NCBI GenBank assembly: GCA_026066175.1
Contig: GCA_026066175.1_4721.2
Source of the DNA: a phage
Direction: 5' to 3' (one strand)
Length of the DNA stretch: 64,000 nucleotides
Position 1 is the stretch's first letter. The number at the start of each line of letters is the position of its first letter. This document shows, one piece after another, positions 24,916-64,000 of this stretch. The notes below the pieces were generated by a model. It was given only the letters and a program-made list of their open reading frames with translations, had not been told where the DNA came from and ran no database searches. A program made the translations under genes and the position numbers.

Positions 24916-25014
24916 TTGACTTATGTATCACGGTGCCGGATGAATGTCCGGTGTAATGAAACCATCCGCAACGTTGTTTTCAAGAACTTCATCCAACGAA
25001 GCAGCTCCGGTATT

Positions 25015-27237
25015 TCAGTTAGTCTGAACCGGCAGCTTGATGTTTTCAGTGTAGACCTTACGCAGGTTCACAACGTTGATCAGACCCAGCAGCGGGCAGT
25101 TGTTCACGAAACGGCAGCGCGGCTGAACCATGGTTTCTTTAGAAACCTGACCGTTACGAGTAACCTGAGCAACGGATACCAGTTCCGGTACGTACAGGAA
25201 CATACCGAAGGTCAGCGGATCCGGAGAACCCTGGATACCACGAGACAGGGTCACGAAGATCTTGTCGCGCAACATGACGTTCGGGTTGTCTACAACCACG
25301 AAGTTGAAGCTTACACCCACGGTGCGGAAGTCACCATCGGTCTGCAGGAACTGCGGGATGTAGTTGTCGGTTGCTACTACGCAACGCGGTTTCTCATCAG
25401 CGTTGGAAGACAGCAGCTGCAGAGCTGGCTGATAACCAGACTCGGAGTACATGCGGTACGCCATTTCACGAATCACGTTCATGATCGCAGCGGATACTTC
25501 AGCACGACGTTCTGCAGTGGTGGTACCCTGAACGGATTTCTCCAGGTCCAGATCGATTTCTTCGAACCACGGACGAATCAGGTAACGACCGAAACCTTCG
25601 ATCTGAATGTCACCGAACTGACGGAAGCGAGAAGTTGCAACCGCTTTCAGGGCGTCTTTGTAGCTGAACAGTTTCTCAACCATCAGGTTGTCGAAACGTG
25701 CGTTAGCTGCTTGGATCAGAACATCCAGGTCAGCAGCGTTTTCTTCCCAATCCAGCGGACGAGGAATGGAGAACGGAGCCAGCAGGCCGATTGCGTAACG
25801 TTCTTGCTTCATGTTGAAGTCAAGATGTTTACCGCGTTCACGACGGTTGCTGTTGTTACGACGGATACGCAGTTCGTAACCCACCAGTTTGAAGCTCAGG
25901 TCTTCAGCCAGATCTTTGAATTCCTGGCTCTTACGCGGTTGTTCGATGTTGTCCTGGTCAACCAGACGATACAGTTCAGCGGTAGCGCCATTAACACGCA
26001 GACCCGCTTTCTCTACGTTGGAAGAACCGTAAACTTCGATCGCCAGCTGAGCAGCAGATTTCGCATCGATGATGTCCTGCAGCGCTTCAGCTTTCGCACC
26101 TTTAACGTCAACGGTGTTCTCATCAACGAAGATGGAGTGGGTGTCGAACGCCAGGGTCATTTTGCGGAAGTCGCCTTCCAGGGATTTCTGGAAACCGTTG
26201 GTGATCAGACCGGATACGTCGAACGGAACGTAAGAGGTTTTGCTGTGCTTGGTGGATTTAATTTCCACCAGGATTTTGGTCAGCGTGATCTGAGCATCCA
26301 GCGCGTCAGTGTTGTCGCTGTAACCGTTAGCCAGAATGCTATCGTCTTCAGCGATACCGATCATGTCGATCAGTTTATCAACCGCCAGGTAAGACGTTTT
26401 GTAAGTAACGCCTTTGATTTCGATGTCGCGCGGAGCAACGATGGTTTTATCAACGAAGTACTGCGCGTTAGCATCGTCAGCACGGTAGATCGGATGCAGA
26501 TCGGTCACGTCGTTGGACAGAACGTCGTTGTACATGAACGCATCCAGCAGCGGACGACGTACCCAATCAGCCGGAGTACCATCACCGTTACGACGCAGGT
26601 GGTTGAACACCAGCGGACGACGGAAGGAAACGTCATAACCGATCTGGTTCGGAGCCAGAACGATGGTGTTGTACAGTTCGTTACCCATGCGGCTCAGACG
26701 AGACGCCTTCACGTTGAACACAACGGAGTACGGCATCATGTCACGCAGTTCTTTCTGGTCGTAGGACAGCTGAACCAGTTCTTCAGATTCACAACCGCAG
26801 GAATCCGCAGCCATCATGACGAAGTTAGCGCTGTCAACATCACGGCCGGACGGCGAGGTGCTGATGTTCATGGAACGTGCTTGTTTAGCATATTCCACCG
26901 GGTTGCCATGTGCCAGCATGATCAGCGCTGCAGCGCGAGCCTGCTGTGCGTTCATGGTGAACAGCTGTTCTTCAATACGTTGCTTCTCTTCCGGAGTTGT
27001 GGTTTCGAAGCCCAGCATGGACAGAACCGGTTCTTCAGCTTTACGGATGTCGCTGCTGAAGCTCTTAACATCCATTTCGTTAACCAGTTTGTCCATGGAT
27101 TTGAAATCAACCTTAGAAGCAGATTCCATAGACAGGAAGGTGTTTTCCAGACCTTTGTCTGCTGGTTTGCTACCATTAGCGGTCAGGAACTGGCGAGTGG
27201 CCGCGACCTGTTGGCTAAGAAGGGTTTTATCATTCAT
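25015..27237 (-). CDS. putative major capsid protein (highly expressed virion protein)
   Basis: 740-aa ORF with markedly optimised codon usage (CTG, CGT, GGT, AAC, TTC, GAA) compared with its neighbours; size matches jumbo-phage major capsid proteins; SD taaagga. The opposite strand carries a long stop-free antisense ORF, typical of highly biased genes. Identity not verified by similarity search. Confidence 0.5.
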   Translation of the reverse strand: MNDKTLLSQQVAATRQFLTANGSKPADKGLENTFLSMESASKVDFKSMDKLVNEMDVKSFSSDIRKAEEPVLSMLGFETTTPEEKQRIEEQLFTMNAQQARAAALIMLAHGNPVEYAKQARSMNISTSPSGRDVDSANFVMMAADSCGCESEELVQLSYDQKELRDMMPYSVVFNVKASRLSRMGNELYNTIVLAPNQIGYDVSFRRPLVFNHLRRNGDGTPADWVRRPLLDAFMYNDVLSNDVTDLHPIYRADDANAQYFVDKTIVAPRDIEIKGVTYKTSYLAVDKLIDMIGIAEDDSILANGYSDNTDALDAQITLTKILVEIKSTKHSKTSYVPFDVSGLITNGFQKSLEGDFRKMTLAFDTHSIFVDENTVDVKGAKAEALQDIIDAKSAAQLAIEVYGSSNVEKAGLRVNGATAELYRLVDQDNIEQPRKSQEFKDLAEDLSFKLVGYELRIRRNNSNRRERGKHLDFNMKQERYAIGLLAPFSIPRPLDWEENAADLDVLIQAANARFDNLMVEKLFSYKDALKAVATSRFRQFGDIQIEGFGRYLIRPWFEEIDLDLEKSVQGTTTAERRAEVSAAIMNVIREMAYRMYSESGYQPALQLLSSNADEKPRCVVATDNYIPQFLQTDGDFRTVGVSFNFVVVDNPNVMLRDKIFVTLSRGIQGSPDPLTFGMFLYVPELVSVAQVTRNGQVSKETMVQPRCRFVNNCPLLGLINVVNLRKVYTENIKLPVQTN

Positions 27238-27386
27238 TGAAAGTATCCTTTACAGATTTAACTTATATAAGTCGGTCGATAGACCATAGCGTACACGCGT
27301 GCATGCGCCACTATAGTATCAGTAAACACTTACCGTTATTGAGGTTGTGATACAACACTAAAAATGCCGCATAACTTTTCCCTACG

Positions 27387-32093: not shown

Positions 32094-32867
32094 TTATTCA
32101 TGATCAGTGTAGAAATGGTGAGGATAGCCGGAGTACGATCCTGCGTTACCGGCTATGGATTCTTTCTGGGAATCGACGACGAGCGCGTAGAACTGTCGGG
32201 AATTTGTTAACGTTGAGAAATAAGAGGAAAGGACTTTTTCGTTCAACGCATCGCACGGTAGACAGGTACGCCCACAGAACGTCGTAATACGGCCATCCGG
32301 ATAGATCTCACGGATCATACGCCATTCACCGATATCAACCGGCGATGGCGCTGCTACACCACCTGTTATCGTTAAATAACGATCATACGTGGTATGACAT
32401 TCTGGATGTACGTAAATTGGCTTATTGGCCTCAACTTCTTCAGGAGCATAGCGTCGACCGAGAAGTTCAATAACCTCCAGATAGATTGTAGGCAGATCGC
32501 AAAGAACCCCTTCCTCTTTACGTTTCTTCGTGATTCGAGGACGAACCTCATTGATAACGTAGGCGAGTTCATTCAGCGCTTCTTGCGCTGGTAGCACGAA
32601 TAAACGGTCCGGTTTGTCGGACAAGTCTTCATTTACGTAAACGTAACAAACATCGTCTTTAGGCGCGTAGAAGAAGCGAGAGACCTTAAAGGTTTCCGTA
32701 GTACGATAACCGAGACGCGTTTGGTCCTGCACCAGAGAAAATATCCAGCGACGTCCTTCGTCCTGTTCAATGATATCATTGAACATCTTTGTTTGATCAG
32801 GAAGTTGATATTCTTCCTGTAATTTAGCAAGTGCTTCATTATCCAGTTTGGTGTAAACATCAGTCAT
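32094..32867 (-). CDS. hypothetical protein, paralogue family B
   Basis: 257-aa ORF; related to the 31175..32008 product over its full length. Confidence 0.65.
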   Translation of the reverse strand: MTDVYTKLDNEALAKLQEEYQLPDQTKMFNDIIEQDEGRRWIFSLVQDQTRLGYRTTETFKVSRFFYAPKDDVCYVYVNEDLSDKPDRLFVLPAQEALNELAYVINEVRPRITKKRKEEGVLCDLPTIYLEVIELLGRRYAPEEVEANKPIYVHPECHTTYDRYLTITGGVAAPSPVDIGEWRMIREIYPDGRITTFCGRTCLPCDALNEKVLSSYFSTLTNSRQFYALVVDSQKESIAGNAGSYSGYPHHFYTDHE

Positions 32868-32894: not shown

Positions 32895-33299
32895 CTAGTC
32901 TATCTTAAGCCAGATTGATGGTAAATGGAAATAGACACCGTCGTCTATTTGTTTTTGTGTTAACGGGGTTGGAAGTTTAGTGATGATGTTGTCGATCGAT
33001 TCCTCAATGTCACTTGTTAGAACGTCGATGTGGTAATAGCGAGCGATGCGTCCGTTACGTTCTAGCCAAAACAGACGAACGAAATCACTATTTTTATTAA
33101 TCGCATTCATAAACACGATTTGATGAAGCAGGATCATTCTTGACGAGGGGTAATCGTCAGGACGCGGAGTCATCACCAGTTCCCAACGTTTCCGTCGCAC
33201 GCCTTTTTTGAATTGACTCGTTACATTTGAACCACTTTTACCTAAGTTTATAACAAATTGCTTTAGACGATACGGTGTGTTTCTGTAAATATCGGTCAT
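32895..33299 (-). CDS. hypothetical protein, paralogue family B (N-terminal-domain-only member)
   Basis: 134-aa ORF; N-terminus MTDIYRNTPYRLKQF and C-terminal ...HLPSIWLKID align with the first ~130 aa of the two longer paralogues and stop at the LP(S/T/D)IY(L/I)K domain boundary. Confidence 0.55.
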   Translation of the reverse strand: MTDIYRNTPYRLKQFVINLGKSGSNVTSQFKKGVRRKRWELVMTPRPDDYPSSRMILLHQIVFMNAINKNSDFVRLFWLERNGRIARYYHIDVLTSDIEESIDNIITKLPTPLTQKQIDDGVYFHLPSIWLKID

Positions 33300-33383
33300 T
33301 GATTATAGCTCCAGGTTATTATCACTAAGGTAATATAGTCGTGAAATAAACTGGAGTAATAGAAATAATAAGACGGCATAAGA

Positions 33384-38636: not shown

Positions 38637-38682
38637 CGCAGATTCCTGTTTGAAAGATAAGATATCACATGATGGTCGACAG

Positions 38683-38716
38683 CATAAAGCCCACCCCGAA
38701 GGGCGGGCTGTTTATG
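38683..38716. terminator. hairpin cataa-agcccaccc-cgaa-gggcgggct-g-tttatg downstream of the 1127-aa gene
   Basis: 9-bp GC-rich stem (one mismatch) plus 5-bp A/T flanks that extend the stem, 9 nt after the stop at 38725; it has the same CATAA...TTATG flanks as the conserved element family. Confidence 0.5.
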
Positions 38717-43227: not shown

Positions 43228-44512
43228 TGCGGGTTTCCTCAAGTTCGAGATGTGCATCAAGGTAATCGTTAAGACCATCGATGACGTCACAGACCGTTAA
43301 CAGGAATCGAGCAAAAGCAACGGCCTGGAAGCCAACGACATTACGAGCAATGCTAACACGTTGCACAATGGCGGTTGAAGCCGCTTGGTCATCGTAGATC
43401 TGATGCAACAAACGTTCGTAGGGCTGAATCCATTCATCTTGATCAGCGAGGCTTGCCTCAAGACAACGTTTAAATTCCAATTGACGTAGCGTTGACCATA
43501 AGGTGCTTAATGCGCCGATGATGGCGTTGGTTCCATCAAGAACATCGTTCAAGGGCAGGAAACGGAATCCGTCCTTCGCTGACTGGAAAGGAATGGCTTC
43601 CCATACAACGCTAAACTGTGCGCCAGTATAATCATCGACGTTCAGTACTTTTAACTGCGAAGCGCCAACCGGTGCGTTTATGATGACGTCATTGGTTTCA
43701 GTGTTCTCCAACGGCTTTTCACACAACGCGTCGTTGATCGCCTTAAGGATGTTTTCCCAACATGCCTCATTTTCAGCCGCGATGTTATCTTTGTTCTCCA
43801 ACACCGGTGCTTTTAATAACCGCATCAGTAACGGATCAAGCTGACGATGCCATGCCGCCAGTATCCCGGTATTTGTCATGATGTTTTCTGCGGTCTGTTG
43901 TAAATCCGCAACGCTGCTTACCGCACCGCCTCTTGGATGGAGATATCGCCAGTTATACGGGAAGTTCTCCCAGAAGGCATTATCTTCGTTAACCGTATAT
44001 GCAGGAAGATTTTTCAGTTTTACGGCTTTCTTCAGCAACGGTTTTACTTGACGCACAAAACGACGATAACTGCGGTTGCAAATATCAATGGCGTAGCGAT
44101 ACAACTCGTTCATGTAAAGCCATAACGCTCGGGTTGCCTCTTTCGCGGTTTTGTCAAAACTTTCCATGTTAAGACTCATCCCACCTGAGGTTTCCTCTTC
44201 CATCCCATCGATGATCTGATTGGGATCCATTCCCATCCCAGCCGCTGCGGTTGAAGCGATATGTTTGATGGTATTAATATCACGTTCTTCAACTTCGGTC
44301 ATGTTAGGGACAATATCTAACCGGAGTTTGTTTAATGTTTGAAGGTGTTGTTCACCTTCCTTCATGACGGTGTTCGTTTCATCGAGTGAGCGAAGCTGAT
44401 TTTCGATATTACCGACATCGAGGATGTTGCCAGCGACACCGAATGATTCTACAGGTTCATCATCTATCCCTTGAAACAACGCGGTCATGGGTTGTTGCAA
44501 CACGTTTTCCAT
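43211..44512 (-). CDS. virion protein, paralogue family C
   Basis: 433-aa ORF with SD aggag; DINTIKHIASTAAAGMGMDPNQ...TAKEATRALWLYMNEL aligns with DVALIRQIASTSAANLGMSDED...KERAAQALYAVWVTI in 44666..45958. Confidence 0.65.
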   Translation of the reverse strand: MENVLQQPMTALFQGIDDEPVESFGVAGNILDVGNIENQLRSLDETNTVMKEGEQHLQTLNKLRLDIVPNMTEVEERDINTIKHIASTAAAGMGMDPNQIIDGMEEETSGGMSLNMESFDKTAKEATRALWLYMNELYRYAIDICNRSYRRFVRQVKPLLKKAVKLKNLPAYTVNEDNAFWENFPYNWRYLHPRGGAVSSVADLQQTAENIMTNTGILAAWHRQLDPLLMRLLKAPVLENKDNIAAENEACWENILKAINDALCEKPLENTETNDVIINAPVGASQLKVLNVDDYTGAQFSVVWEAIPFQSAKDGFRFLPLNDVLDGTNAIIGALSTLWSTLRQLEFKRCLEASLADQDEWIQPYERLLHQIYDDQAASTAIVQRVSIARNVVGFQAVAFARFLLTVCDVIDGLNDYLDAHLELEETRNAADQ

Positions 44513-44568
44513 TTAGGACTCCTACGTAGGAAAGATCATGGTGGGTGATCATGTCCACCATTGTGCGC

Positions 44569-44591
44569 GGTATGGAGCGTGGCTCCATACC
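44569..44591 (-). promoter_or_regulatory. perfect 10-bp stem / 3-nt loop hairpin in the 5' leader of 43211..44512
   Basis: ggtatggagc-gtg-gctccatacc, about 60 nt upstream of the start codon. Confidence 0.4.
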
Positions 44592-44626
44592 CAAGTCAAA
44601 AGATAACCGGATATTAACGGCATATA

Positions 44627-44658
44627 CCCTCCTCCTTCCCTTCCGGGTTGGAGGAGGG
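44627..44658. terminator. conserved GNRA-capped hairpin element, copy 6 (canonical sequence on the minus strand)
   Basis: Plus strand reads ccctcctcc-tt-ccc-ttcc-ggg-tt-ggaggaggg, the reverse complement of the canonical element; 8 nt downstream of the stop of 44666..45958. Confidence 0.6.
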
Positions 44659-44665
44659 ATTTAGC

Positions 44666-45958
44666 TTATTTTGCTTTCTCGGTTACCGCGTTGAAGTATT
44701 TCGCTGCAGCAAATACCGCCTCCGCATACTGACGGACAGAGGCACGGAGGATCTTGGTTCCTAATACCGAGCTTAAACGAGCCATTTCTGTTACAGCCGC
44801 GATATAAGGACGTACGGTTTCACGATCGGCCTCAGGTAACTTGTCGAGCATTTCGCCCCACTTCGTTTTGATTTTCATTCCGTTGAGTTTAGCATCTCGT
44901 CCTACAGTGCTTGCCAAACTTTCAACTTTATGCAAATATGTCGGCTCCACCCTATGGAATGCCTTCAGATATGCCGTCAATGCGCTTTTCAGCTCATTCC
45001 CATCGTGGAAAATATTCACATTTTCGATATTATCTGTTACGGTGTCAACAACTTCGATATGAACATCCTTCACCAAAGCACATGCTTTAATGACATCTTT
45101 CTCTTTTTCTAACGCATCCAGCCCTTTAACGACATATTGTTTTCCGCCGCTTTCTGGAAGTCTGAACGCTCTCAGCGCAGCTTTAGTGGTCTGAAGATAC
45201 TTATCTAGAACACTATCGAGCGTTGTTAAATCAGTTAGGACATTGATGTCGTAGTTGATGTCACCGATCATAGTAAATAGGAAATCTGACGTCGCCGCAC
45301 TTGCAGCTAATTGTTCGATATGTTTGCTAACGGATGTTGCATTAACCGATTTTGCGTTCGGGAACATATTAACCATATTCCCGGTAGGCTTCTCTAGCTG
45401 CTTGATCTGACGTTCCCCTTTATTGACTTCGGATGCGATTTTGGTGATCTCAGCATAAGCCAGAACGAGATTCTTGAAAAGCGTCTGGAGCAACTTAAAC
45501 AATTGTTCAGCAATATTCGCGATGGTGACCCAGACCGCATACAGTGCTTGCGCTGCACGTTCCTTGAAGCCTTCCAGCACGATAGCTTGGCCTTCGACTA
45601 ACTTATCATTAGCCTGGAACATGTCTTCATCAGACATACCCAGGTTAGCTGCCGATGTTGATGCGATTTGGCGGATAAGCGCAACGTCGCTGGCGCGGGC
45701 TTCTGTGATCGTTGATGCGATTACGTAGGCGGTATCTTCCAACGTTGCTGATGTCCGTACAGCGATTTCAGCCAGTTCGCTGTTCTCGTCGATGCTGTCG
45801 TCGGTATGTCGAATCACCAACTCAACTTCATCTTCCTCAATTTCTGCGTTGGGGTCTTGTTGCTCGGGTGAAATCGATGCAAGAACATCTTCAGCGCTGA
45901 GTAGTGCGAGTTCAAAAGCGTTTTTATTGATGTTATCAAAAAGAGAAATACGGGCCAT
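44666..45958 (-). CDS. virion protein, paralogue family C
   Basis: 430-aa ORF with SD aaggaa; acidic N-terminal region (PEQQDPNAEIEEDEVELV...) followed by the conserved family core. Confidence 0.65.
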   Translation of the reverse strand: MARISLFDNINKNAFELALLSAEDVLASISPEQQDPNAEIEEDEVELVIRHTDDSIDENSELAEIAVRTSATLEDTAYVIASTITEARASDVALIRQIASTSAANLGMSDEDMFQANDKLVEGQAIVLEGFKERAAQALYAVWVTIANIAEQLFKLLQTLFKNLVLAYAEITKIASEVNKGERQIKQLEKPTGNMVNMFPNAKSVNATSVSKHIEQLAASAATSDFLFTMIGDINYDINVLTDLTTLDSVLDKYLQTTKAALRAFRLPESGGKQYVVKGLDALEKEKDVIKACALVKDVHIEVVDTVTDNIENVNIFHDGNELKSALTAYLKAFHRVEPTYLHKVESLASTVGRDAKLNGMKIKTKWGEMLDKLPEADRETVRPYIAAVTEMARLSSVLGTKILRASVRQYAEAVFAAAKYFNAVTEKAK

Positions 45959-47287: not shown

Positions 47288-47335
47288 GTGATGTCTCCAG
47301 TAATAATTCAAAAGATAAATCAGCGCAGCATAAGA

Positions 47336-51393: not shown

Positions 51394-52602
51394 ATGTCTA
51401 ATTACTACGACCAAGCTATTCAAACCATTCAGGAGAATAATGCGTCGTTAACACCCGAAGCGGTGGAGGCGGCGGGCAACACAGCGTTATTCACTGATTC
51501 GGATTGGGCAATAGCGCGGAAGAATATTCGTACCAGTGTCGGTCAGGGGACATACGAGGACAGTATCGCCAGACGGTATCGAAATGTCTCCCCGATTCCA
51601 GGGAACAGCCCGATTCCGATCAACCGCGATCATGCCGGTATCACCTTCTTTACACGACCCAATTTAAATCTTACCGACGCGAATTTAAAACGCGATCGTC
51701 GCTTATGGTCGTTACGTACGGATAACCCCAATAGTATCCAGGCGGTTGTCCGTGACTATTTAGACCCTGTAGGAGCCAGAAAGCGTAACCATCGAGGACG
51801 TGCCATCGTCGACGAGCGCAATCCATTCATAAGTATACTGACGGATAACCTGACGGATATCAGTGGTTTTAACGACATGGAGATGCAGGTTTATCAAGGT
51901 AAACCCGGATTACGGCAAGAAACCGTGGTGATGGCCGACGGTTCGGTGGATATGTTTCAGCCTTATAATCTTAACGCGACGTTCAAGAACATCATGGGTA
52001 ACCCCATCATGTTCCTTCATTATATTTGGCTGATTTACATTGCAGGCGTGCATAACGGTGAATTGTCGCCAAGCCCGCAGGCCATCATCGATAACGAGAT
52101 GGATTATTGGACACGGTGCTATCGCATCATTCTCGATCCTACTGGCATGTATGTTCGTTACATCTTTGCACCAACAGCGATGTTCCCTGTGGGGCTACCG
52201 ATTGGTAACATGGCCAACTACAGCATTGATAAGCCATTCACGCAGGATAACGAACGTATCACCATTCCGTATCAAGCGGTGGGGAACAACGCGTTCGATG
52301 AAATCCTGAAGGACGAATTCAACCGTTTGGTGTTGATGTTCTATTACGGTGATAATGATACCCGTACGTTCCTTGAGGACGAAGAGGTCGTCCCGATTTC
52401 ACCCTACGAACGTCGGATTATGTCCTATCGTGTCGATATGTATCCCTTCATCCATCCATTAACCTCGGAGCTGCTCTGGTTTGTTCCGGCTGATGACTAT
52501 AATGAATTCTATCTGGATCTTGAACCATCTGCATTACCGCCGGATACGTTCAGTCGCGATCTTGTCCGTACCACTATTCCGCAAAGTTACGAGGGAGAAT
52601 AA
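51394..52602 (+). CDS. hypothetical virion protein
   Basis: 402-aa ORF with SD aaagga; its stop is immediately followed by the ATG of the next gene (taaATG). Confidence 0.65.
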   Translation: MSNYYDQAIQTIQENNASLTPEAVEAAGNTALFTDSDWAIARKNIRTSVGQGTYEDSIARRYRNVSPIPGNSPIPINRDHAGITFFTRPNLNLTDANLKRDRRLWSLRTDNPNSIQAVVRDYLDPVGARKRNHRGRAIVDERNPFISILTDNLTDISGFNDMEMQVYQGKPGLRQETVVMADGSVDMFQPYNLNATFKNIMGNPIMFLHYIWLIYIAGVHNGELSPSPQAIIDNEMDYWTRCYRIILDPTGMYVRYIFAPTAMFPVGLPIGNMANYSIDKPFTQDNERITIPYQAVGNNAFDEILKDEFNRLVLMFYYGDNDTRTFLEDEEVVPISPYERRIMSYRVDMYPFIHPLTSELLWFVPADDYNEFYLDLEPSALPPDTFSRDLVRTTIPQSYEGE

Positions 52603-55657: not shown

Positions 55658-58600
55658 TTATCTTACGTTATTGCTATTCTGCTGTTCACTGAACCAACCA
55701 TAGACTTTGAGATCGGTACCGTATCTCAGTGCAAGGTATGCGTTCATCGCAGCACAGAACAACGTCGCGTAGTGCCATAAGAGCTCAACATCCATGTCAT
55801 CGGGAGTCTTGGTAAAACCAGCACCTGGTACAAAGCGTGACGGTTCATGCATGAACGTGCGGTACCAGTCGTGCTGTTGTTGTTTCGTCGTGAAATCACG
55901 GTGTGGTTCTAACGCTTCTCTTGCAAGACGACGATACTCGAGAAGATGGTGATTAGCCCGATTATTGCGAGGGTAACTGACTTCGTAGTTAGGATCGACA
56001 GCTTGGCATAGCGCTGTTGAGTCTAATAACTCGATGGCTTTGACTAACTTATCGCTCGCGTTGGTGATGAGCGCCGATCTGTAATACTCGATCGAATTAG
56101 CAAGTTGCGAATAGAAGTCATCTAAGGCATCTGGATTTGATACCTGCAGATCAAGACCTAATGTCCACGGATAGCTGCTTTCATCATTGAGTTGCGGTAC
56201 GACACCCAGGAGATGTTGGCAGATAGCTGCGTGATTATTGAACTGATCGTGGAAAATAGCTCGTGCAACTTCAATCGCATGATGATAACTCAAACGCCGT
56301 TCCTGACGTGTCGTCCTAAATGAGTTAACGGCGAGCAGTCCCGCGGTAGCCGCGCAAACATCAGTGTCGTTGACGTTGTTAAGCACATAGTTACTAAGCT
56401 GGAAAGATTCTTGCTTCAACGTTCCATTGGTCGCCGTTGCTTCGCTATTCGCTTTATCAACGATGGTGCTTAGCGCGTTAATATAACGTTTAGCGCGAAC
56501 TTCCAACCACTGTGCGATCCCAAGCACATCCACAGCCGCTTTAGCAAGGTCACGTGCGTTCACGATTTCGTTCTTCAATGCACCCAGCCCTTTATTTTCA
56601 GGTGAGGAGGCTTGTTGTCGAATCATGCTGTTCAACATGGTAAGCAGGTTATCCAGCTCGTGTCCGCTGACCTTGTTACGTGCGTCAGTAATCGGCCCTT
56701 GCAGGAATTTACGACAACCGTCATTATACCGAATCAGTTTATCCACGTCGATGGATTCGTTCGCGGTTTCCTTGAACTGATTCTTTAATTCTTCACGGTA
56801 GTCGTGTATCTCGCTTGTAAGATTATCAACGGTGATACCATTGTGACCAAGAAGAACTTTACTGAAGTTGCCCTTCTCGAACGCCAGTGCGATGCCTTCA
56901 CGAATCTTAGCCAGCTTATCCTGATCTAACTCACGACCGTTTGACAGTTCTTTCACTTCAGCGCTGATTATTGCTGCAACTGTTCCAAGGTTATCGGTAA
57001 CCCCTTTGAACGTGCTTGACCAAACACTTCCCGCTTCAGCGTATTTTGCGATGGTCTGGATACCGACGCTATGTAGCGACGCTAAACGTTTCTTCGTACC
57101 TTCGGTAAGCAATGCATCTTTAGCTCGCGTAAGTTGACTGTTATTGGCTTCCGCTTGCTGGATGGCCGCTTTCGCATTCCCGTTACGCCAGCTCTTAACC
57201 AACCAATCGACTAAACGTTTCAGGATATTGATGGTATATTCCATCGTACGTCGTAACGTTTCCCACGCGCTTTCAGCGGTATAGATCCCACCAACAGTGT
57301 ACCCTTCCATCTTCAGCGCTTTGGTATCGGTTTGACGTGCCAACCATTCTACCGTCGCAGAACAAACGTTTACGAACGCCTCCAGGTAGTTGTAATAGGC
57401 CTCTGTTGCGGAGGTTTCGTTGAGCTTGGAATGCAGATAAAACTGTTCGTATAGCTCGTCGTCATCACCGAAGGCGTCGTAGTTCCACAGTTCGGTATCG
57501 CAGCCGGTACCACAGAAGACATCCGCCGTTGTAAACTCCTTAAGTGCTTTCGTTGCGTCGTTGGTCAGGAATTTACCTGTCTCAAGTACGTCGTCAACAT
57601 TAAGTCTCGGGAGTTCGTCAGTAATTGGGTTTTCCAGCATCAACGTATTGAAGAACACGCTGTACTTGTATCCAAGCCATTTTGGATAACTGTTTTCAGA
57701 TATCGTAGACGCCGGTTTGATTTTCTTGGCTTCAGCCAACGTGTCTTCTGCAACCTGATATTGGTTTTCCCCAGCTTTGATACGTCGTAATGCTTTTTCT
57801 TCCAACTGTTTGAGTTTGGTGTGCCGTGCTTGAGCTGGAGCCTCAACCAGTTTTTGTACCGACCGCATGGCGGAAATCGCTTCTTTCAATGTGGTGATCG
57901 GCATACGAACTTTACCGTCATCGAAACTCAGCGCGCGAGCAATACGTCGACTTACAACAGGTTCGGTATGGATGTTTCTTTCTACCCACGATTTGTTTGC
58001 GTAGGTTTGCGTGATTTGCTGCTGGATCTTTTCAAGATAGCCCCAGCTTTTGGATGCTTTGCCGTCCAAAAGCGGATTAGGTCCTTTCTTATCAAAAAGC
58101 TTTTTGATAGGATCAAAGAAACCTTCTTGCACGAGATCGATACGGGTGTAACCATCAGCTGCTTCGATTTCTTCTTGGGTTTTATCCCAGAAGTCGTCGC
58201 TCTTTGCAGCAACCGCTGTATCTTTAATGTCCAGGATGATCTGACCCACCGTTTGCGCAAACAGCAAGGCCGCACGTACCGATTGTGCGAACATCCGCTG
58301 ATATTTGATTCGAACGCATTGCATCTGGGTTAGCAGATTCAGTTGCGCGATCCCATCCAAGGTGCTATCTTGAGCAAGTCCTTCAGCCTTAGCGATAACC
58401 TGTTTTACACGTTCAGCGACATCAACGTATTGCTGGCATACATCCCGCAGAATACGTGCTGCGAAGACCCCGGTACCGATATAGTTCAACAGGTCTTTTA
58501 ATGACCATTCAGACGGACAATCGGCTGGTGCGGTAGGGAGTAAGCAACCATCACCGTCCATGAATCGCTCTAATGCGCTAATATCCTGATTTTCTACGCT

Positions 58601-59263
58601 CATGGGGATATCGACATCAGCCGCTTGCAGATCCAGCATCTGTTGTAGGATGTTGGTGTCGGCTTGTACGAGCGTTGCAAGCGCTCGGCTGTGTGAGATT
58701 ATTGGTAACGCTGGTGACCATACTGCAGCAAGCTTGTCGGCGTGACGTTGAATGGCATACCCCATATCCTCGATCACATCGGGATGCTCGATAACCCCCT
58801 GAAGCGTTTGATGCAGCTCACCGAGTTGCTGAGACAGATCGACCATCATGGTGTTGAAGGTTTCGCCATCCTCTTTGTGGTTGTCCAGACGCTCGAGTTC
58901 ATGTTGCAGCAATGCGACGAGCTGTCCGTTGCCTTCTTGCTTCAGCTTGCTTTCCATTAATGTAATGGCTTTATCGACGATCTGACGCGCTTCACGAAAA
59001 CCGGTTGTGGAAGGAAGCTCTGTCCATAACGCCAGCGGTTTACCGTCAAGGGCTTCCGGCATCGATAACGAAAGCATAGTCAGTTGTTGGCGTGATACTT
59101 GCTGTTCACGGTGTAATGTTTCTTTTAACGCCAGGAGATCGTCAAGAAACGCGCCGTTAAGGGCGGTCGTACGCGGTGTTGAATTAATACCGTCAGTTAA
59201 TGATTCAAGCACCAGGAGACCGTTATCAGCTGAAGAGAGTCCCGCGGCAAGATATTTGTTCAT
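55658..59263 (-). CDS. very large, mostly alpha-helical hypothetical virion protein (start revised)
   Basis: ~1201-aa ORF; the ATG at 59263 (MNKYLAAGL...) has SD ggag with an 8-nt spacer. The track start at 59320 would translate through a perfect 12-bp-stem hairpin (59279-59309) and gives a P/G-rich leader. Confidence 0.6.
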   Translation of the reverse strand: MNKYLAAGLSSADNGLLVLESLTDGINSTPRTTALNGAFLDDLLALKETLHREQQVSRQQLTMLSLSMPEALDGKPLALWTELPSTTGFREARQIVDKAITLMESKLKQEGNGQLVALLQHELERLDNHKEDGETFNTMMVDLSQQLGELHQTLQGVIEHPDVIEDMGYAIQRHADKLAAVWSPALPIISHSRALATLVQADTNILQQMLDLQAADVDIPMSVENQDISALERFMDGDGCLLPTAPADCPSEWSLKDLLNYIGTGVFAARILRDVCQQYVDVAERVKQVIAKAEGLAQDSTLDGIAQLNLLTQMQCVRIKYQRMFAQSVRAALLFAQTVGQIILDIKDTAVAAKSDDFWDKTQEEIEAADGYTRIDLVQEGFFDPIKKLFDKKGPNPLLDGKASKSWGYLEKIQQQITQTYANKSWVERNIHTEPVVSRRIARALSFDDGKVRMPITTLKEAISAMRSVQKLVEAPAQARHTKLKQLEEKALRRIKAGENQYQVAEDTLAEAKKIKPASTISENSYPKWLGYKYSVFFNTLMLENPITDELPRLNVDDVLETGKFLTNDATKALKEFTTADVFCGTGCDTELWNYDAFGDDDELYEQFYLHSKLNETSATEAYYNYLEAFVNVCSATVEWLARQTDTKALKMEGYTVGGIYTAESAWETLRRTMEYTINILKRLVDWLVKSWRNGNAKAAIQQAEANNSQLTRAKDALLTEGTKKRLASLHSVGIQTIAKYAEAGSVWSSTFKGVTDNLGTVAAIISAEVKELSNGRELDQDKLAKIREGIALAFEKGNFSKVLLGHNGITVDNLTSEIHDYREELKNQFKETANESIDVDKLIRYNDGCRKFLQGPITDARNKVSGHELDNLLTMLNSMIRQQASSPENKGLGALKNEIVNARDLAKAAVDVLGIAQWLEVRAKRYINALSTIVDKANSEATATNGTLKQESFQLSNYVLNNVNDTDVCAATAGLLAVNSFRTTRQERRLSYHHAIEVARAIFHDQFNNHAAICQHLLGVVPQLNDESSYPWTLGLDLQVSNPDALDDFYSQLANSIEYYRSALITNASDKLVKAIELLDSTALCQAVDPNYEVSYPRNNRANHHLLEYRRLAREALEPHRDFTTKQQQHDWYRTFMHEPSRFVPGAGFTKTPDDMDVELLWHYATLFCAAMNAYLALRYGTDLKVYGWFSEQQNSNNVR

Positions 59264-59278
59264 AAAACACTCCGTTGG

Positions 59279-59309
59279 CCTAGGGGAAGGCTGAAAACCT
59301 TCCCCTAGG
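59279..59309 (-). promoter_or_regulatory. perfect 12-bp-stem hairpin cctaggggaagg-ctgaaaa-ccttcccctagg between two large genes
   Basis: Exact 12-bp inverted repeat with a 7-nt loop, 13 nt after the stop of 59323..62118 and 15 nt before the ATG at 59263; the SD lies 4 nt downstream of the stem. Confidence 0.55.
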
Positions 59310-59322
59310 GTTATAAACACAA

Positions 59323-62118
59323 TTAAGCTAATTTACCGAAACCGGCTTTCTGCAGTTTCTCGTTGATGATTTTCGCTTCAGCGAAGACGTAATCGCGGTA
59401 GGCGGTCACTAACGCATCCACGCGTGAACGCAAGGCTTCTTCGAAGCTATACCAGGCGGCGATTTCACGAATCTGCACGCTGATATAATCAACGGTTGAG
59501 CGAAGCTCGGTTGCGTTTTCTTGCGGGATGGCTTTCACTTGGCGAGCAACATCGCTTAAACGGCGGAACTGTGTTTCGATTTCTTTAAACTTACTGTCGG
59601 CAAGTTTGCTGAATTCGTCACCAGAACGGGTAAATAACAGATAGCTGTTGCCGTCAAGTGCGGTCGCTAACTGCTGAAGTACGTTGGTGTCCGGATACAC
59701 AGGAGTACCGCTTTGCAGTACTTTCTCACCGAATTCCGCGAAGTCCTTCGGTGGTAAGTGTGCAGACGTTGTCAATTCGTTGAAACGGAAAGTCAGCGAA
59801 TTATCATACAGCATCCGGTACGCTTCCATACCCTGTTTCATGGTACCGGCCAGGTTAGCCAGACGCGGAGCAATCTCGCCTTCTTTAGCGCGTTTCTGGT
59901 CTTCTAACGCCCCTTCGAGTTCTTTACACTGGTCGTTCAGATACACGATACGATCAGGACGTAGACGACGCATCTCACGAAGAATAGTATCCAGCTTACC
60001 TTCCTGGAAATAACCCAACGTTAAAGACGTACACGCTTGCTGAAGACGATCGAACACCGGTAAGGTTACCATCTCCTTACGGATACCATCAACAATCGCA
60101 GAAACAGCCGAAAGTTTCTGTTCTGTAGTCAATGGAACATCAGAGGCCGACTTGCTGGGTGCACCAACAACGTTACGCATTGCGTCGGTATCCTCGGTTT
60201 TATCAACCTCTTTACGAACATGCTCATCAGGAACATAAACGTTCGCGTTACGTTTCGCCTGCTTGATGGCGTCGTTGGCCGCTTTTTCGGTGGCCGCTAC
60301 GCTATCGGCACGTTTCTTCAAGAGTTCAATAATCCAGAGCAACAGACGACGAATCGCAGTGTAGGCTGTCGTGATGATGACACCGATAACAGCCATCTTC
60401 ATGATACCGAACGATTCCATGGTCGGCTCTAACGCTTGGTCTGGCATATACCGTTCACGCAGCTCCAGATAGATCTGCTCATCTGGTTTGCTGACCTCAC
60501 CACGATGCGAAGTCCGATAAATGGCTTCGTCAATCTCAACAAGATCTTTGCGTGCCTGACGGTCAGATTCTGTTAGGTAAGCACAACCGGATACGTCGTC
60601 TTCGAAGCTTAAGAATTTGAAAAAGTCACTGACGTCGATCTTGATCTTCTTCGCTTCATTATCGACATCGATAACATCTTTTTTCTGTGCCTGATATTCC
60701 GCTTTGATGTCGTTCACCGGCTTCAACGCACGTTCTTTTAATACCTGCACGATCTGTTTCCAGTCGGCGTCACGCTCAAGAACAAGGAAGTAATTCTTGA
60801 GTTCAAAAGCACGGTAACGCGCAACGAGTTGTTCTACCTGAATATGAGCGAGTTGCACATCCATCAGCCAACGCGACATTGCTGAGATCAAACGGCTATA
60901 AGCAAGCAATGTCTGATATGTTAGCTTCATGTGCTTTTCGTACAGCTCAATATCGCCGTCTTGAATATCAGCCGTTGGGTTCATTTCCTTCGTTGCTTTG
61001 AAGATCTGTTCGGCCTCATTTAACGTTTGTTCGAATTTGACTTCATTAAACGTGTCAAACGGTTCAGCCAACTCCATCATTCGATCGTGAAGCTCACGAA
61101 CCCAGGCTTCCTTATTGTTGCGAATAGCTGCGTCATCGTGAAGTTCAGTTTGATGTTTCTGTACCCATTCTTCGACGATATCAGCGGCGGCAACAATTCC
61201 TGTACCATCGGAAACTAACGGAACAACTCCAGCAAGTACGCCTACACACGCCGGGGTTTTCCAATAATCGTTCAAAGCGTTTCTGAATTCAACGATGGAT
61301 TGTACGTTTGGTACCGTATCCAAAAACGTACTGCCGTTACGGCTCATTGTCGTTACGATATCAGCGAATTCCTTCTGCTTAGCGGTAACAAAAGGAACCA
61401 GGACCATAAGCCATTCAGCAACCGACTTCGCTTTCTCTTTCAGATTTTTGTCAGCGATTTCCTTAAGGTTTATCGCACCACCGTAACCTGCAAGCTCTTT
61501 ATATACGTCGCTAAGGGTCATCTGTTTATCCAACATTTCTTTGAAACGTGGGTAATCAGCACCTAACGCATCGACAATATCGTTGATTACGTCATCAGTT
61601 GTTGCGATAAACTTCTTCGTATCAACGTTTGAATATTTCCAGACGTATCGTACTGCTTTCTTGATTCCTGCAAAGATAAACGCCCAGATACGCTTGATGA
61701 GTTCCCAGACTTTCTTCGCGCCATCGACAAACAGTTTAGAGACCTTGGCAACGAATCCTTCCTGCACCAATTCAACGCCGTTACGTGATGGGATTTCCGT
61801 GAAGAAAGCATCCGGCAGTTGTTTCGGGAATGCGTCACCAAGACGCATACGCAGTTCCGGTACATCAGCACGAGAAATACCGCGTGTTACTAATTGTTCG
61901 TGAAGACGAACGTTTTCTTCACCAGAGGTCACGAATTCGTCAACATCGAAGGAGACCATTGTTTCCTGATCTTCGGTGGTAACGACGCTTGAACCATCAC
62001 TGGTTTGGATGTCTTCGTCAGGGAATGCCATGAGCATACCGTGACGCATTTCAACCACCCCGTAATCGGTTGCTAAACCGAATTCGTTGTGGTCTGGGGT
62101 AATAACTGGGATACTCAT
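59323..62118 (-). CDS. large hypothetical virion protein with internal hydrophobic segment
   Basis: 931-aa ORF with ATGA overlap to the upstream gene; hydrophobic stretch MKMAVIGVIITTAYTAIRRLLLWIIELL; predicted largely helical. Confidence 0.6.
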   Translation of the reverse strand: MSIPVITPDHNEFGLATDYGVVEMRHGMLMAFPDEDIQTSDGSSVVTTEDQETMVSFDVDEFVTSGEENVRLHEQLVTRGISRADVPELRMRLGDAFPKQLPDAFFTEIPSRNGVELVQEGFVAKVSKLFVDGAKKVWELIKRIWAFIFAGIKKAVRYVWKYSNVDTKKFIATTDDVINDIVDALGADYPRFKEMLDKQMTLSDVYKELAGYGGAINLKEIADKNLKEKAKSVAEWLMVLVPFVTAKQKEFADIVTTMSRNGSTFLDTVPNVQSIVEFRNALNDYWKTPACVGVLAGVVPLVSDGTGIVAAADIVEEWVQKHQTELHDDAAIRNNKEAWVRELHDRMMELAEPFDTFNEVKFEQTLNEAEQIFKATKEMNPTADIQDGDIELYEKHMKLTYQTLLAYSRLISAMSRWLMDVQLAHIQVEQLVARYRAFELKNYFLVLERDADWKQIVQVLKERALKPVNDIKAEYQAQKKDVIDVDNEAKKIKIDVSDFFKFLSFEDDVSGCAYLTESDRQARKDLVEIDEAIYRTSHRGEVSKPDEQIYLELRERYMPDQALEPTMESFGIMKMAVIGVIITTAYTAIRRLLLWIIELLKKRADSVAATEKAANDAIKQAKRNANVYVPDEHVRKEVDKTEDTDAMRNVVGAPSKSASDVPLTTEQKLSAVSAIVDGIRKEMVTLPVFDRLQQACTSLTLGYFQEGKLDTILREMRRLRPDRIVYLNDQCKELEGALEDQKRAKEGEIAPRLANLAGTMKQGMEAYRMLYDNSLTFRFNELTTSAHLPPKDFAEFGEKVLQSGTPVYPDTNVLQQLATALDGNSYLLFTRSGDEFSKLADSKFKEIETQFRRLSDVARQVKAIPQENATELRSTVDYISVQIREIAAWYSFEEALRSRVDALVTAYRDYVFAEAKIINEKLQKAGFGKLA

Positions 62119-62555
62119 GCATTCTCTCCTTGCAGTGCGTTAGCGAAAGCCGTTGCGAGTTGCGCAACCAGCTTAGGATCAACACCTTCGATAACGTCGG
62201 GCAGCCCTGCGGTTTCTTGGTCACGAACGGCGGAGGCTAATAACAGCATGGTTTCAGGTGCGGTCGGCTCATGCACCATGCGGTAACGCAGGCACCAGAA
62301 GTAGCGGGCAACGTCTAACGCATCGGCCAGCCCAATAACCAGTACCTTGTTCAGCTTATCCAGCCCTTCACGGATTTTAGGGAGATGTTCGCGAACGAAA
62401 ATGCTATCTGCGGTCAGATCTTCTTTTTCAGCGAATACGGGCATGCTGTAACCAGCGATATAACCTGCGGCAATACTTAGCGCACGGGTCTGTTGTTCGG
62501 CTGGGAAATCACGTACCAGGTCTTTCAGTTGAACAGCGAAATCAGAAATATTCAT
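62115..62555 (-). CDS. hypothetical protein
   Basis: 146-aa ORF with SD taaaggaat. Confidence 0.6.
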   Translation of the reverse strand: MNISDFAVQLKDLVRDFPAEQQTRALSIAAGYIAGYSMPVFAEKEDLTADSIFVREHLPKIREGLDKLNKVLVIGLADALDVARYFWCLRYRMVHEPTAPETMLLLASAVRDQETAGLPDVIEGVDPKLVAQLATAFANALQGENA

Positions 62556-62588: not shown

Positions 62589-63899
62589 TTACGCGATGAT
62601 GGAGTCGAGTTTCGCTGACGCTTTGAACAGATCGTTGTTCATTGTTGAAGAAAGGACTTGCTGAATCTCTTCCTGTTTAACGGCTTTACGAACCCCAGGA
62701 CGAAGGATAAGCGTAACCATCTGCGAGAAGGTACGATTATTGTTCATCACACTCAGTGTTTCATCGATTGTTTTGATGGTATCCAACGTCATGGAACGAA
62801 CATCGCTTGGGATATCACGATCTTTCAGGCGTATGATTAAATCTTGTTTGATTTTACGGAATCGTTCCATGTCGTTATCGTAAATGTTGTATGTTGGATC
62901 TAACCAAACCGAAAGCGCGGTTACCGCTACAACAACTAACACGCCGATAGCACCAACAGAAGCTAAACCTATCGCCATCATGGAGACGATAGTAGCATCC
63001 ATGATGAAGGAGAGCCAGAACATCGTTTTGGACTTCATGGAGTTGGTACCATAAAGTCGAAACATTTTAGCAAGCCCGCTAACGAGATACTCCCCACCAC
63101 CATGACGCGTAGCGAACTGATCAGCCATGAATTCGGAAGAAACGTCGGTATAGCGTCCAGCGTTGTTGACATTTCTTAACTGCATCGCTTTGTTAGAAAC
63201 ATAAACCGTGTACCAGACATTACCATCGTCTGAATCGCTGATTTTGTTTACGTCGACGTTAGTATCCAGCGTTTTGTTTAACGCCTTAGCCAGTTCAATA
63301 CGTTTTACCTTATCGGTTGTCCCTAGCAGTTCACGCTGTACAGTCATGATTGAGGCTTCAACACGAACCGTTTCCGATAATGTTTCAAGGAAAGTAAATG
63401 CGTGCCCGATTTCATGCAGCATTATGGCCGCTTTTTCTTCCGGAATAAATGGTTCTGTCGCTGTTAGCAATTCATACGTGATGGCGGAACGAATCTTCAA
63501 TTCCTCAAAGATACCGTAAACACGACCTTTTTCTAAATCGACATAACCGACAGGCGTATCTTTAATCTTCTTAAGGAGTGTGACACCATCGGCACCGCGC
63601 ATCCATAATCGATGATAGTCTGCCATGATCGTGTTGTTTGTCGAAATATCCGGCGGGTACACGTAGGCGTTCATCTGGCCCATTTTCACATCAACCGAAA
63701 ATTCGATGTTCAACCCCGTATAGCGTTTAACCATCTCGGTTAAATGACCGTCCTTGAAAACGTTTAAAACCTCTTTTTTATCCAGTCCTTGTTTGCTTCT
63801 GAAGAACTCGGTCATTTCCTTGAACAAAGAACCATCCTGGAATTTGATGGCCTCCATCGTTAACTCGTCATGACCATACACACGTTGTAGTAATGACAT
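62589..63899 (-). CDS. putative membrane-associated zinc metallopeptidase (M48/HtpX-like motifs)
   Basis: 436-aa ORF with HEIGH (HExxH zinc-binding motif) at ~152, a downstream SSEFMADQFA (ExxAD-type third-ligand motif as in M48 peptidases) at ~245, and a ~40-residue hydrophobic region (MFWLSFIMDATIVSMMAIGLASVGAIGVLVVVAVTALSVWL) consistent with two TM helices. Confidence 0.5.
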   Translation of the reverse strand: MSLLQRVYGHDELTMEAIKFQDGSLFKEMTEFFRSKQGLDKKEVLNVFKDGHLTEMVKRYTGLNIEFSVDVKMGQMNAYVYPPDISTNNTIMADYHRLWMRGADGVTLLKKIKDTPVGYVDLEKGRVYGIFEELKIRSAITYELLTATEPFIPEEKAAIMLHEIGHAFTFLETLSETVRVEASIMTVQRELLGTTDKVKRIELAKALNKTLDTNVDVNKISDSDDGNVWYTVYVSNKAMQLRNVNNAGRYTDVSSEFMADQFATRHGGGEYLVSGLAKMFRLYGTNSMKSKTMFWLSFIMDATIVSMMAIGLASVGAIGVLVVVAVTALSVWLDPTYNIYDNDMERFRKIKQDLIIRLKDRDIPSDVRSMTLDTIKTIDETLSVMNNNRTFSQMVTLILRPGVRKAVKQEEIQQVLSSTMNNDLFKASAKLDSIIA

Positions 63900-63910
63900 T
63901 TTACACTCTC

Positions 63911-63928
63911 TAAATTTACGTAAATTTA
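63911..63928. promoter_or_regulatory. perfect 18-bp AT-rich palindrome TAAATTTACGTAAATTTA upstream of the metallopeptidase gene
   Basis: Exact reverse-complement symmetry, 12-29 nt upstream of the ATG at 63899; candidate operator or promoter element. Confidence 0.45.
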
Positions 63929-64000
63929 AGGGTTGGTTAAAAGCAGGTTGGCTGGCCTCGCCAATCTGTCACAGCCGTTGTGCTGCAACGGCATTCATAG

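Follow-up and report, generated by a model that had tools for sequence, protein, structure and literature searches.

What does a protein with zinc metallopeptidase motifs and a long hydrophobic region do among the virion genes of a phage? The question is raised by an open reading frame (ORF) at 62589..63899, on the minus strand, in a 64,000-nucleotide (nt) stretch of phage DNA (NCBI GenBank assembly GCA_026066175.1, contig GCA_026066175.1_4721.2; the whole stretch is referred to below as the window). In an initial annotation, its product had been taken for a putative HtpX/Ste24-type membrane protease, and a palindrome just upstream of it for a candidate operator. When the sequence was read directly, the ORF was found to start with ATG and to encode 436 amino acids followed by a stop codon. 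The HEIGH and EFMADQFA motifs and the long hydrophobic region were confirmed by sequence, hydropathy and AlphaFold2. We identify its product as the form taken in the Goslar lineage by a core head protein of jumbo phages, and have high confidence in this identity, in the head location and in the processing described below. The gene is entered as follows:

62589..63899, minus strand: M48-like zinc metallopeptidase head protein, ortholog of core gene cg22 (assigned from the ORF, the identity to Goslar gp67, the PHROG match and synteny)

The DNA surrounding the ORF was 90.6% identical to that of Escherichia phage Goslar, a nucleus-forming jumbo phage; judged by this likeness, the source is a Goslar-like chimallivirus. 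The ORF product shared 90.8% amino acid identity with Goslar_00067 (gp67) over the full length, and the divergence of ~9% lay mostly within the hydrophobic hairpin described below. Compared with phiKZ gp84, SPN3US gp45 and RAY gp286, the identity was ~25% over the full length. The phiKZ ortholog, PHIKZ084 (gp84), was traced via OMKO1, and the ortholog in SPN3US was recognized by BLASTP (E 8e-28, full length) together with synteny. Length, motifs, hairpin and propeptide site are common to the ORF product and its orthologs in Goslar, phiKZ, SPN3US and RAY. In the supplement of Prichard et al. 2023, Goslar gp067, phiKZ gp084 and RAY gp286 share one entry, cg22 of the Chimalliviridae core genes, under the name 'putative virion structural protein'.

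The family is large. The protein matched phrog_2767 with an E value of 4e-83 (function class in PHROGs: unknown), and tblastn returned homologs in 248 phage records, belonging to phiKZ-like, RAY-like, SPN3US-like, PCH45-like and other jumbo phages. When 1.84 billion representatives were searched by profile, 4043 clusters (50% identity) matched at E <= 0.001, which makes the family very large in metagenomes; the best 150 matches of this search were full-length family members only, and no bridge to cellular M48 proteins was seen among them. Most database records label the orthologs only as 'virion structural protein'. The GenBank record of Moabite names its ortholog 'M48 family lipoprotein protease', with a note that gives an HHpred value of 98% to HtpX 3CQB. 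Thus the family is already catalogued, as cg22, and the M48 similarity is already present in some GenBank records.

For the analysis of conserved residues, we used an alignment of 46 homologs, extending down to 21% identity and having a mean column identity of 31%. The N-terminal segment is entered as follows:

63852..63899, minus strand: predicted N-terminal propeptide, similar to a capsid-targeting segment, codons 1-16 (MSLLQRVYGHDELTME) (from the alignment and a predicted local distance difference test score (pLDDT) < 50)

Cleavage by the prohead protease was predicted after E16 (T-M-E16|A17). This S/A/G/T-x-E site was predicted from the alignment ahead of any look at proteomics data. Glu occupied P1 in 44 of the 46 homologs, and S, A, G or T occupied P3 in the same number; P1' was mostly Ala or Ser. 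In the Goslar lineage, P3 is Thr instead of S/A/G. The leader preceding the site was variable among the homologs (8-30 residues), with pLDDT below 50. In SPN3US, a 20-residue propeptide is removed from gp45 by the prohead protease gp245 at an A-X-E motif (PMC10052503, PMC5694885), and the authors likened this propeptide to the capsid-targeting sequences of T4 (PMC5694885). When the two proteins were aligned, the A-S-E20|S of SPN3US gp45 fell exactly on E16|A17.

Public data are also available for Goslar virions. In a preprint combining cryo-electron microscopy (cryo-EM) and proteomics, gp067 is neither modelled nor discussed, and is represented in the virion by 19 peptides with 46.8% coverage (Table S4, 10.64898/2026.04.21.720040). 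Its copy number there is ~48 per virion, with a range of 32-76 (10.64898/2026.04.21.720040). One of the virion peptides, AAIMLHEIGHAFTFLETLSETVR, spans the active site, and a semi-tryptic peptide, AIKFQDGSLFKEMTEFFR, starts exactly at A17 (10.64898/2026.04.21.720040). The peptide of the unprocessed form, which is the counterpart of those starting at A17, would be VYGHDELTMEAIK. We regard the A17 peptide as supportive, not decisive; that a peptide started at the exact predicted residue by chance is unlikely. The virion detection and the A17 peptide are data on Goslar, and for the source phage the cleavage site is predicted from the sequence. The orthologs show or strongly support that this is a late virion gene, that tens of copies of its product are present per head, that the propeptide is cut off after Glu and that the zincin active site stays intact in the virion.

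The putative active site was then located on the alignment:

63402..63416, minus strand: HEIGH, HExxH zinc-binding/catalytic motif on a long active-site helix, residues 162-166 (from invariance and the alignment to M48)
63111..63134, minus strand: EFMADQFA, with an M48-type E-x-x-A-D motif whose Glu is a candidate for the third zinc ligand, residues 256-263 (from invariance and profile alignment)

Residues H162, E163, G165, H166, E256 and D260 were invariant in all 46 homologs, and R265 and G267, downstream of EFMAD, were conserved. Since the key residues are invariant throughout the alignment, the two motifs, as sequence patterns, far exceed chance. In the Pfam search that had been proposed in the initial annotation, weak matches to Peptidase_M48 were obtained for 27 of the 46 homologs, the best having an E value of 2.5e-5. 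NCBIfam HtpX models gave E values of 0.001 or worse. When the family profile was compared with human ZMPSTE24, an E value of 3e-4 was obtained with both motifs aligned ('EE..A.l.HE.GH' and 'R..E..AD.FA...G'), and EFMAD was placed on the 'RRFEFQADAFA' of ZMPSTE24 (EFQAD at residues 412-442). When the four E. coli M48 paralogs HtpX, BepA, LoiP and YcaL were aligned and compared by hhalign, HEIGH was placed on their HExxH, with a probability of 89.9% and an E value of 1.7e-6. A phmmer search of PDB sequences with the single protein gave nothing relevant.

The structure was predicted by AlphaFold2 from the alignment of 46 sequences (mean pLDDT 80, predicted template modelling score 0.81). Foldseek matches in BFVD beyond the orthologs included a 'Zincin protease [Bacillus phage AR9]' and a 'Peptidase M48 domain-containing protein'. 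Structural similarity to these zincin or M48-like proteins of AR9 and uncultured myoviruses extended over the full length (Foldseek E 7e-8 to 1e-4), but the identity was only 12-15% and the TM-scores were ~0.4-0.5; their names are those of UniProt. To judge from these comparisons, we are dealing with a gluzincin distantly related to the M48 type (HtpX/Ste24/BepA), with an alpha/beta plus helical catalytic domain, and not with a protein of the HtpX/Ste24 architectural type. Its predicted zinc ligands are H162, H166 and E256, and E163 is the predicted catalytic base. Because the active site is invariant, even between two alleles that are only 47% identical (described below), the protein is probably competent in catalysis.

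The region downstream of the Glu motif contains two further elements:

62901..63029, minus strand: hydrophobic helical hairpin, a candidate membrane-insertion or buried oligomerisation element, residues 291-333 (from hydropathy and AlphaFold2)
62592..62882, minus strand: C-terminal helical domain with near-invariant Y340, D341, R346 and K359, residues 340-436 (from the alignment and AlphaFold2)

Residues ~291-333 form the only strongly hydrophobic stretch of the protein (~43 residues), with Kyte-Doolittle 19-mer means of up to 2.57, and were rendered by AlphaFold2 as two helices (291-314 and 317-333). The 19-mer of highest hydropathy falls after the Glu motif and before the YD motif in every one of the 46 homologs; it is the position of the hairpin that is kept in all of them, and not its sequence. 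The hairpin was also seen to be hypervariable, with 35-70% identity between alleles that are 92% identical overall. No N-terminal transmembrane helix, signal peptide or lipobox was seen in the ORF product. The label 'lipoprotein' was rejected for want of a signal peptide or a lipobox.

These features allow a comparison with peptidase family M48 (HtpX, Ste24/ZMPSTE24, BepA, LoiP, YcaL, Oma1). The ORF product shares with it the HExxH helix in an 'E-x-x-A-(V/I)-x-x-HE' context and the distal Glu in an E-x-x-A-D motif. Unlike the M48 proteins, it has an extra N-terminal alpha/beta region of ~130 residues and a unique C-terminal helical domain. Its hairpin follows the Glu motif, whereas the transmembrane helices of M48 proteins flank or split the catalytic domain. 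The lipoprotein or periplasmic signal of LoiP, YcaL and BepA has no counterpart in it. Going by its orthologs, it differs also in that it is carried inside a virus capsid and owes its maturation to a second protease. Hence, of the HtpX/Ste24-type membrane protease proposed initially, the distant M48-type core stands, while the topology (a hairpin after the Glu motif, and no N-terminal transmembrane helix) and the capsid-internal orthologs speak against the remainder.

Comparison of Goslar-like alleles showed that the core and the hairpin vary together. A divergent-allele clade of Goslar-like genomes, P0007-P0028, comprises 22 clusters at 90% identity. On both flanks of the gene these genomes are 96-97% identical to Goslar at the nucleotide level. 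Over codons 35-351 (window 62846-63797; L005:6104-7053), no nucleotide similarity was detectable between this clade and L001 (Goslar). From codon 352 on, the C-terminal part was again 96% identical in nucleotides between the two Goslar-type alleles. The protein of the P0007-P0028 allele is 47% identical overall, falling to 10-35% in places, and among isolated phages its nearest relative is Goslar (48.5%). Thus the propeptide, the first helix and the C-terminal domain are retained and the protease core and hairpin are exchanged, with the catalytic residues present in both alleles. The core and hairpin have been swapped as one cassette, a pattern in keeping with an effector that is under pressure to diversify.

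Orthologs of two capsid vertex-binding-complex proteins follow the gene:

62115..62555, minus strand: gene of 146 amino acids, ortholog of Goslar gp66/phiKZ gp85, capsid vertex-binding-complex protein (cryo-EM assignment, 10.64898/2026.04.21.720040)
59323..62118, minus strand: gene of 931 amino acids, ortholog of Goslar gp65/phiKZ gp86, capsid vertex-binding-complex protein (cryo-EM assignment, 10.64898/2026.04.21.720040)

These orthologs bear out the placement among virion genes that had been noted initially. On its other side, ORF 62589..63899 is divergent from a DNA-polymerase-exonuclease-like gene (gp68). The order of divergent polymerase-like gene, ~146-amino-acid gene and larger head gene is kept in Goslar, OMKO1/phiKZ, RAY, Moabite, PCH45 and SPN3US. 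In phiKZ, orf84 received 0 transposon insertions in 1242 bp, the genome-wide figure being one per 42 bp; the cg22 protein may thus confer fitness in phiKZ.

What role would account for these observations? The protein is probably a packaged, processed zinc protease that would be delivered with the DNA. In the course of events that we propose, the gene would be a late one, sharing its transcription unit with the genes of the two vertex-binding-complex proteins. The prohead protease would cut the product after the conserved x-x-Glu site (E16|A17), and a few dozen copies would be kept per head. The protein would then leave the head with the DNA, in the manner of the T4 capsid-targeted internal enzymes. 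Its hairpin would anchor in the membrane around the entering genome, which may be the inner membrane or that of the early-infection vesicle, and at this membrane a host or phage protein would be cleaved. As a whole, a trimmed zinc protease that is packaged and leaves the head with the DNA is the explanation that we consider best, and we hold it with moderate confidence. The later steps, ejection and action at a membrane, are put forward tentatively, by analogy, and taken by themselves are rather doubtful.

The analogy is with internal proteins of the T4 capsid. Capsid-targeted internal proteins of T4 enter the cell together with the DNA, and their targets belong to the host. Like T4 IPI* and Alt, the ORF product has a predicted short N-terminal propeptide (10-20 residues) cut after Glu by the prohead protease; going by Goslar, it is present in tens of copies per head, and it is probably an enzyme rather than a shell component. 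There is no relationship to IPI* or Alt in sequence or fold, and the membrane-type hairpin is found only in the ORF product. Ejection and host targets belong to the T4 proteins, to which the cg22 family is likened by its propeptide, its copy number and its enzyme core. We propose ejection and membrane entry because of this analogy and because many chimallivirus head proteins reach the early phage infection (EPI) vesicle; according to the Goslar ejection study, many of them are ejected into it. A link to the Avs5 defence was rejected, the trigger of Avs5 being a different protein.

Several points weigh against a packaged protease that is delivered with the DNA. With respect to the enzyme, the Pfam Peptidase_M48 score of the ORF product itself was 11.6 bits (E 0.25), below the gathering threshold of 20.3 bits; the hhalign match to M48 spans 34 columns only; and when the full-length model was compared with the PDB by Foldseek, no match was obtained at E <= 0.001. 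In the literature on the orthologs (phiKZ, Goslar, jumbo-phage M48), no functional study or biochemical data were found. With respect to processing, there is one spectrum only for the A17 peptide, and about a third of the Goslar phage peptides sampled (5 of 15) were semi-specific. With respect to delivery, the Goslar ejection study covered proteins other than gp67, gp60 and gp61 among them, and in a membrane-less capsid the hairpin could equally be a buried protein-protein interface. The transposon result in phiKZ is possibly polar, an effect of which its authors warn; orf85-86, where insertions are lacking as well, could be deleted by them.

The main rival is a role within the capsid, at the vertex-binding complex. 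Here the protease would act inside the head, trimming or remodelling internal head proteins during or after packaging. Co-transcription with the genes of the vertex-binding-complex proteins gp66 and gp65 favours such a role, and the complex is absent from empty capsids and is therefore assembled late. The ~48 copies (32-76) are compatible with 55, that is, 5 at each of the 11 non-portal vertices, which is so far a numerical coincidence. Helical density without assignment lies beside gp65, but this density has been described as a PF12699-like fold. Moreover, every mapped head cleavage in SPN3US fits A-X-E, leaving no orphan sites for a second protease, and a role inside the capsid leaves the conserved hairpin and the cassette-like diversification of the core unexplained. 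We consider this role unlikely, while ranking it ahead of the other alternatives.

Less probable still is that the protein serves as a structural or scaffolding component of the head, its zincin fold being an evolutionary relic devoid of catalysis. Such a reading agrees with the 'virion structural protein' of most records, with the weakness of the M48 similarity and with the lack of any reported activity in the literature. Relic active sites, however, normally decay. Here the catalytic H, E and H, the distal E and the D are invariant in 46 homologs in spite of the low mean column identity, and the catalytic residues are intact in both of the deeply diverged Goslar-type alleles. A purely structural role is less likely because of this invariance, and we regard it as improbable. 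Finally, a non-virion, HtpX-like membrane protease made during infection for quality control or envelope remodelling, as the M48 homology, the hydrophobic segment and the 'M48 family lipoprotein protease' of Moabite might suggest, is highly improbable, since it is contradicted by the detection of the protein in caesium chloride-purified Goslar virions and its processing by the prohead protease in SPN3US heads, as well as by the missing signal peptide and lipobox and a topology unlike that of HtpX.

The second claim of the initial annotation concerned the palindrome, which lies in the 5' leader of the gene:

63911..63928, no strand: perfect 18-bp palindrome TAAATTTACGTAAATTTA in the leader; exact, ending 11 nt before the ATG and adjoining the Shine-Dalgarno sequence
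63906..63910, minus strand: GAGAG, Shine-Dalgarno-like, 6 nt before the ATG and within a 31-nt block 100% identical to Goslar
63987..64000, minus strand: TCTATGAATGCCGT, truncated where the window ends; degenerate version of the recurrent Goslar motif (T/C)TTATGC(C/T)G and candidate promoter of a phage RNA polymerase, ~96 nt upstream of the ATG
63974..63992, minus strand: small GC-rich hairpin GCCGTTG-CAGCA-CAACGGC in the putative leader, pairing kept via U-A -> U-G, in two haplotypes only

The exact palindrome was confirmed at 63911-63928. As an operator, it would be bound by a dimeric phage regulator of the divergent promoters of gp67 and the DNA polymerase (gp68), and perfect dyad symmetry in a divergent intergenic region is what such a site might look like. 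In addition, the 31-nt block that holds the palindrome, the Shine-Dalgarno sequence and the start codon is completely identical between the window and Goslar, whereas the 25 nt just upstream of it have diverged, with a 7-nt indel and several substitutions between haplotypes. The block is identical in four Goslar-like sequences, which represent two independent haplotypes only, and the chance of zero change in 31 nt at the local divergence of ~9% is ~0.05.

The search for further copies, which had been suggested along with the operator, was negative. No second copy was present in the window at <=3 mismatches or in the complete 237-kb Goslar genome at <=4 mismatches. The half-site was not enriched, and no half-site pairs were found. 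Four other genera, represented by OMKO1, RAY, Moabite and PCH45, had no equivalent element in front of their orthologs. The palindrome is thus a unique sequence in the window and the Goslar genome, a finding that the initial annotation had itself named as counting against an operator. Furthermore, when the window was simulated 100 times under a first-order Markov model, 23 of the simulated sequences held a perfect palindrome of at least 18 bp (~0.25 expected per window), and the element adjoins the Shine-Dalgarno sequence, downstream of a promoter-like motif. If TCTATGAATGCCGT is a promoter, the palindrome would be transcribed as part of the 5' leader. An operator is, on this evidence, very improbable, and annotation of 63911-63928 as such is unwarranted.

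As RNA, the palindrome gives a 7-bp A/U stem only, which can be extended into the Shine-Dalgarno sequence. A structured RNA element was rejected, the fold of the leader having z = -1.08 relative to shuffled sequences and only two haplotypes being available. We take the palindrome to be a lineage-specific element of the 5' leader, at most a weak A/U hairpin or an A/U-rich translation element; its function is uncertain and probably minor. Elsewhere in the leader (63941-63992, minus strand), two small hairpins keep their pairing between the window and Goslar (U-A -> U-G and C-G -> U-G), which is not statistically meaningful with two haplotypes.

Other palindromes were also present. The window contains six that are perfect and spacer-less, of 18-22 bp and unrelated in sequence, as compared with the ~0.25 expected under the same model. 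Their positions are as follows, five of them lying inside long ORFs:

2347-2366: perfect palindrome
2701-2718: perfect palindrome
19690-19707: perfect palindrome
32764-32785: perfect palindrome
58090-58109: perfect palindrome
63911-63928: perfect palindrome, described above

In Goslar, only those at 2347-2366 and 63911-63928 remain perfect, while two more are present in imperfect form. The whole Goslar genome has four perfect palindromes, against ~1.3 expected.

Promoter-like motifs were sought by de novo k-mer enrichment in the intergenic regions of Goslar, and two motifs were recovered. The first, TTTCACGGC-TATATTAC-TTAgGTGA, is strongly conserved; Goslar has ~10 copies and the window a single one, at 33330-33346 (minus strand), in front of ORF 32895-33299. 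It resembles an early promoter consensus for a phage RNA polymerase. In the second, a GC-rich hairpin is followed directly by (T/C)TTATGC(C/T)G. About 20 copies of it are present in Goslar, and in the window it was found at 47326-47334, 38680-38688 and 33374-33382, all on the minus strand and intergenic. Such an arrangement might join a terminator to a promoter that is used by the phage non-virion RNA polymerase. Both agree with what we take to be the promoter motifs of phiKZ, 'TATG' (late) and 'TATATTAC' (early), which served as an unconfirmed lead only and were both recovered de novo in Goslar.

In the wider virion block, ORF 51394-52602 (plus strand), the ortholog of phiKZ gp88, matched Pfam PF23971, 'Putative phage tail tube protein', with an E value of 2e-79. 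By these assignments, the block around ORF 62589..63899 interleaves head (vertex-binding complex) genes with tail/baseplate genes. ORF 55658-59320 (minus strand) encodes 1220 amino acids; its counterparts have 930 in Goslar (gp64), 1205 in the relative L004 and 930 in L005. The window lineage therefore has an extra segment of ~290 amino acids, in which the 20-bp palindrome 58090-58109 is located. In the major capsid protein of Goslar (L009, Goslar 43439-45661; window ortholog at ~25000-27250), no density was seen for the first 157 residues. G-C-E150 and S-E-E153 lie just before the start of the density, and fit the S/A/G-x-E rule of gp67.

ORF 62589..63899 is aptly annotated as an M48-like head protein processed by the prohead protease, with phiKZ gp84 and SPN3US gp45 as its orthologs; the names lipoprotein and HtpX-type membrane protease should be avoided. 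To what was already catalogued, the present analysis adds the chain of orthology through SPN3US gp45 to a mapped cleavage site and the family-wide conservation of that site. Further additions are the evidence drawn from public Goslar data (the A17 peptide and the copy number), the recognition of a distinct topology and of a core that diversifies like a cassette, and the negative result for the palindrome.

In its broadest form, which is speculative and in our judgement unlikely, the proposal is that a zinc protease, injected from the head and inserting into a membrane, is common to all phiKZ-like jumbo phages and cuts a protein of the host envelope or defence, or a co-injected phage protein. 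If this were true, its action would be needed to build or to protect the first infection compartment, and the exchange of the core and hairpin cassette between genomes that are 96-97% identical would reflect an arms race with a host target. The formation and use of the early-infection vesicle in chimalliviruses, and the roles of co-injected head proteins, are stated open questions. Few core head proteins have an active site that can be recognised as that of an enzyme; the cg22 family is one of them and has, in addition, a membrane-type hairpin, which makes it tractable by mutation.

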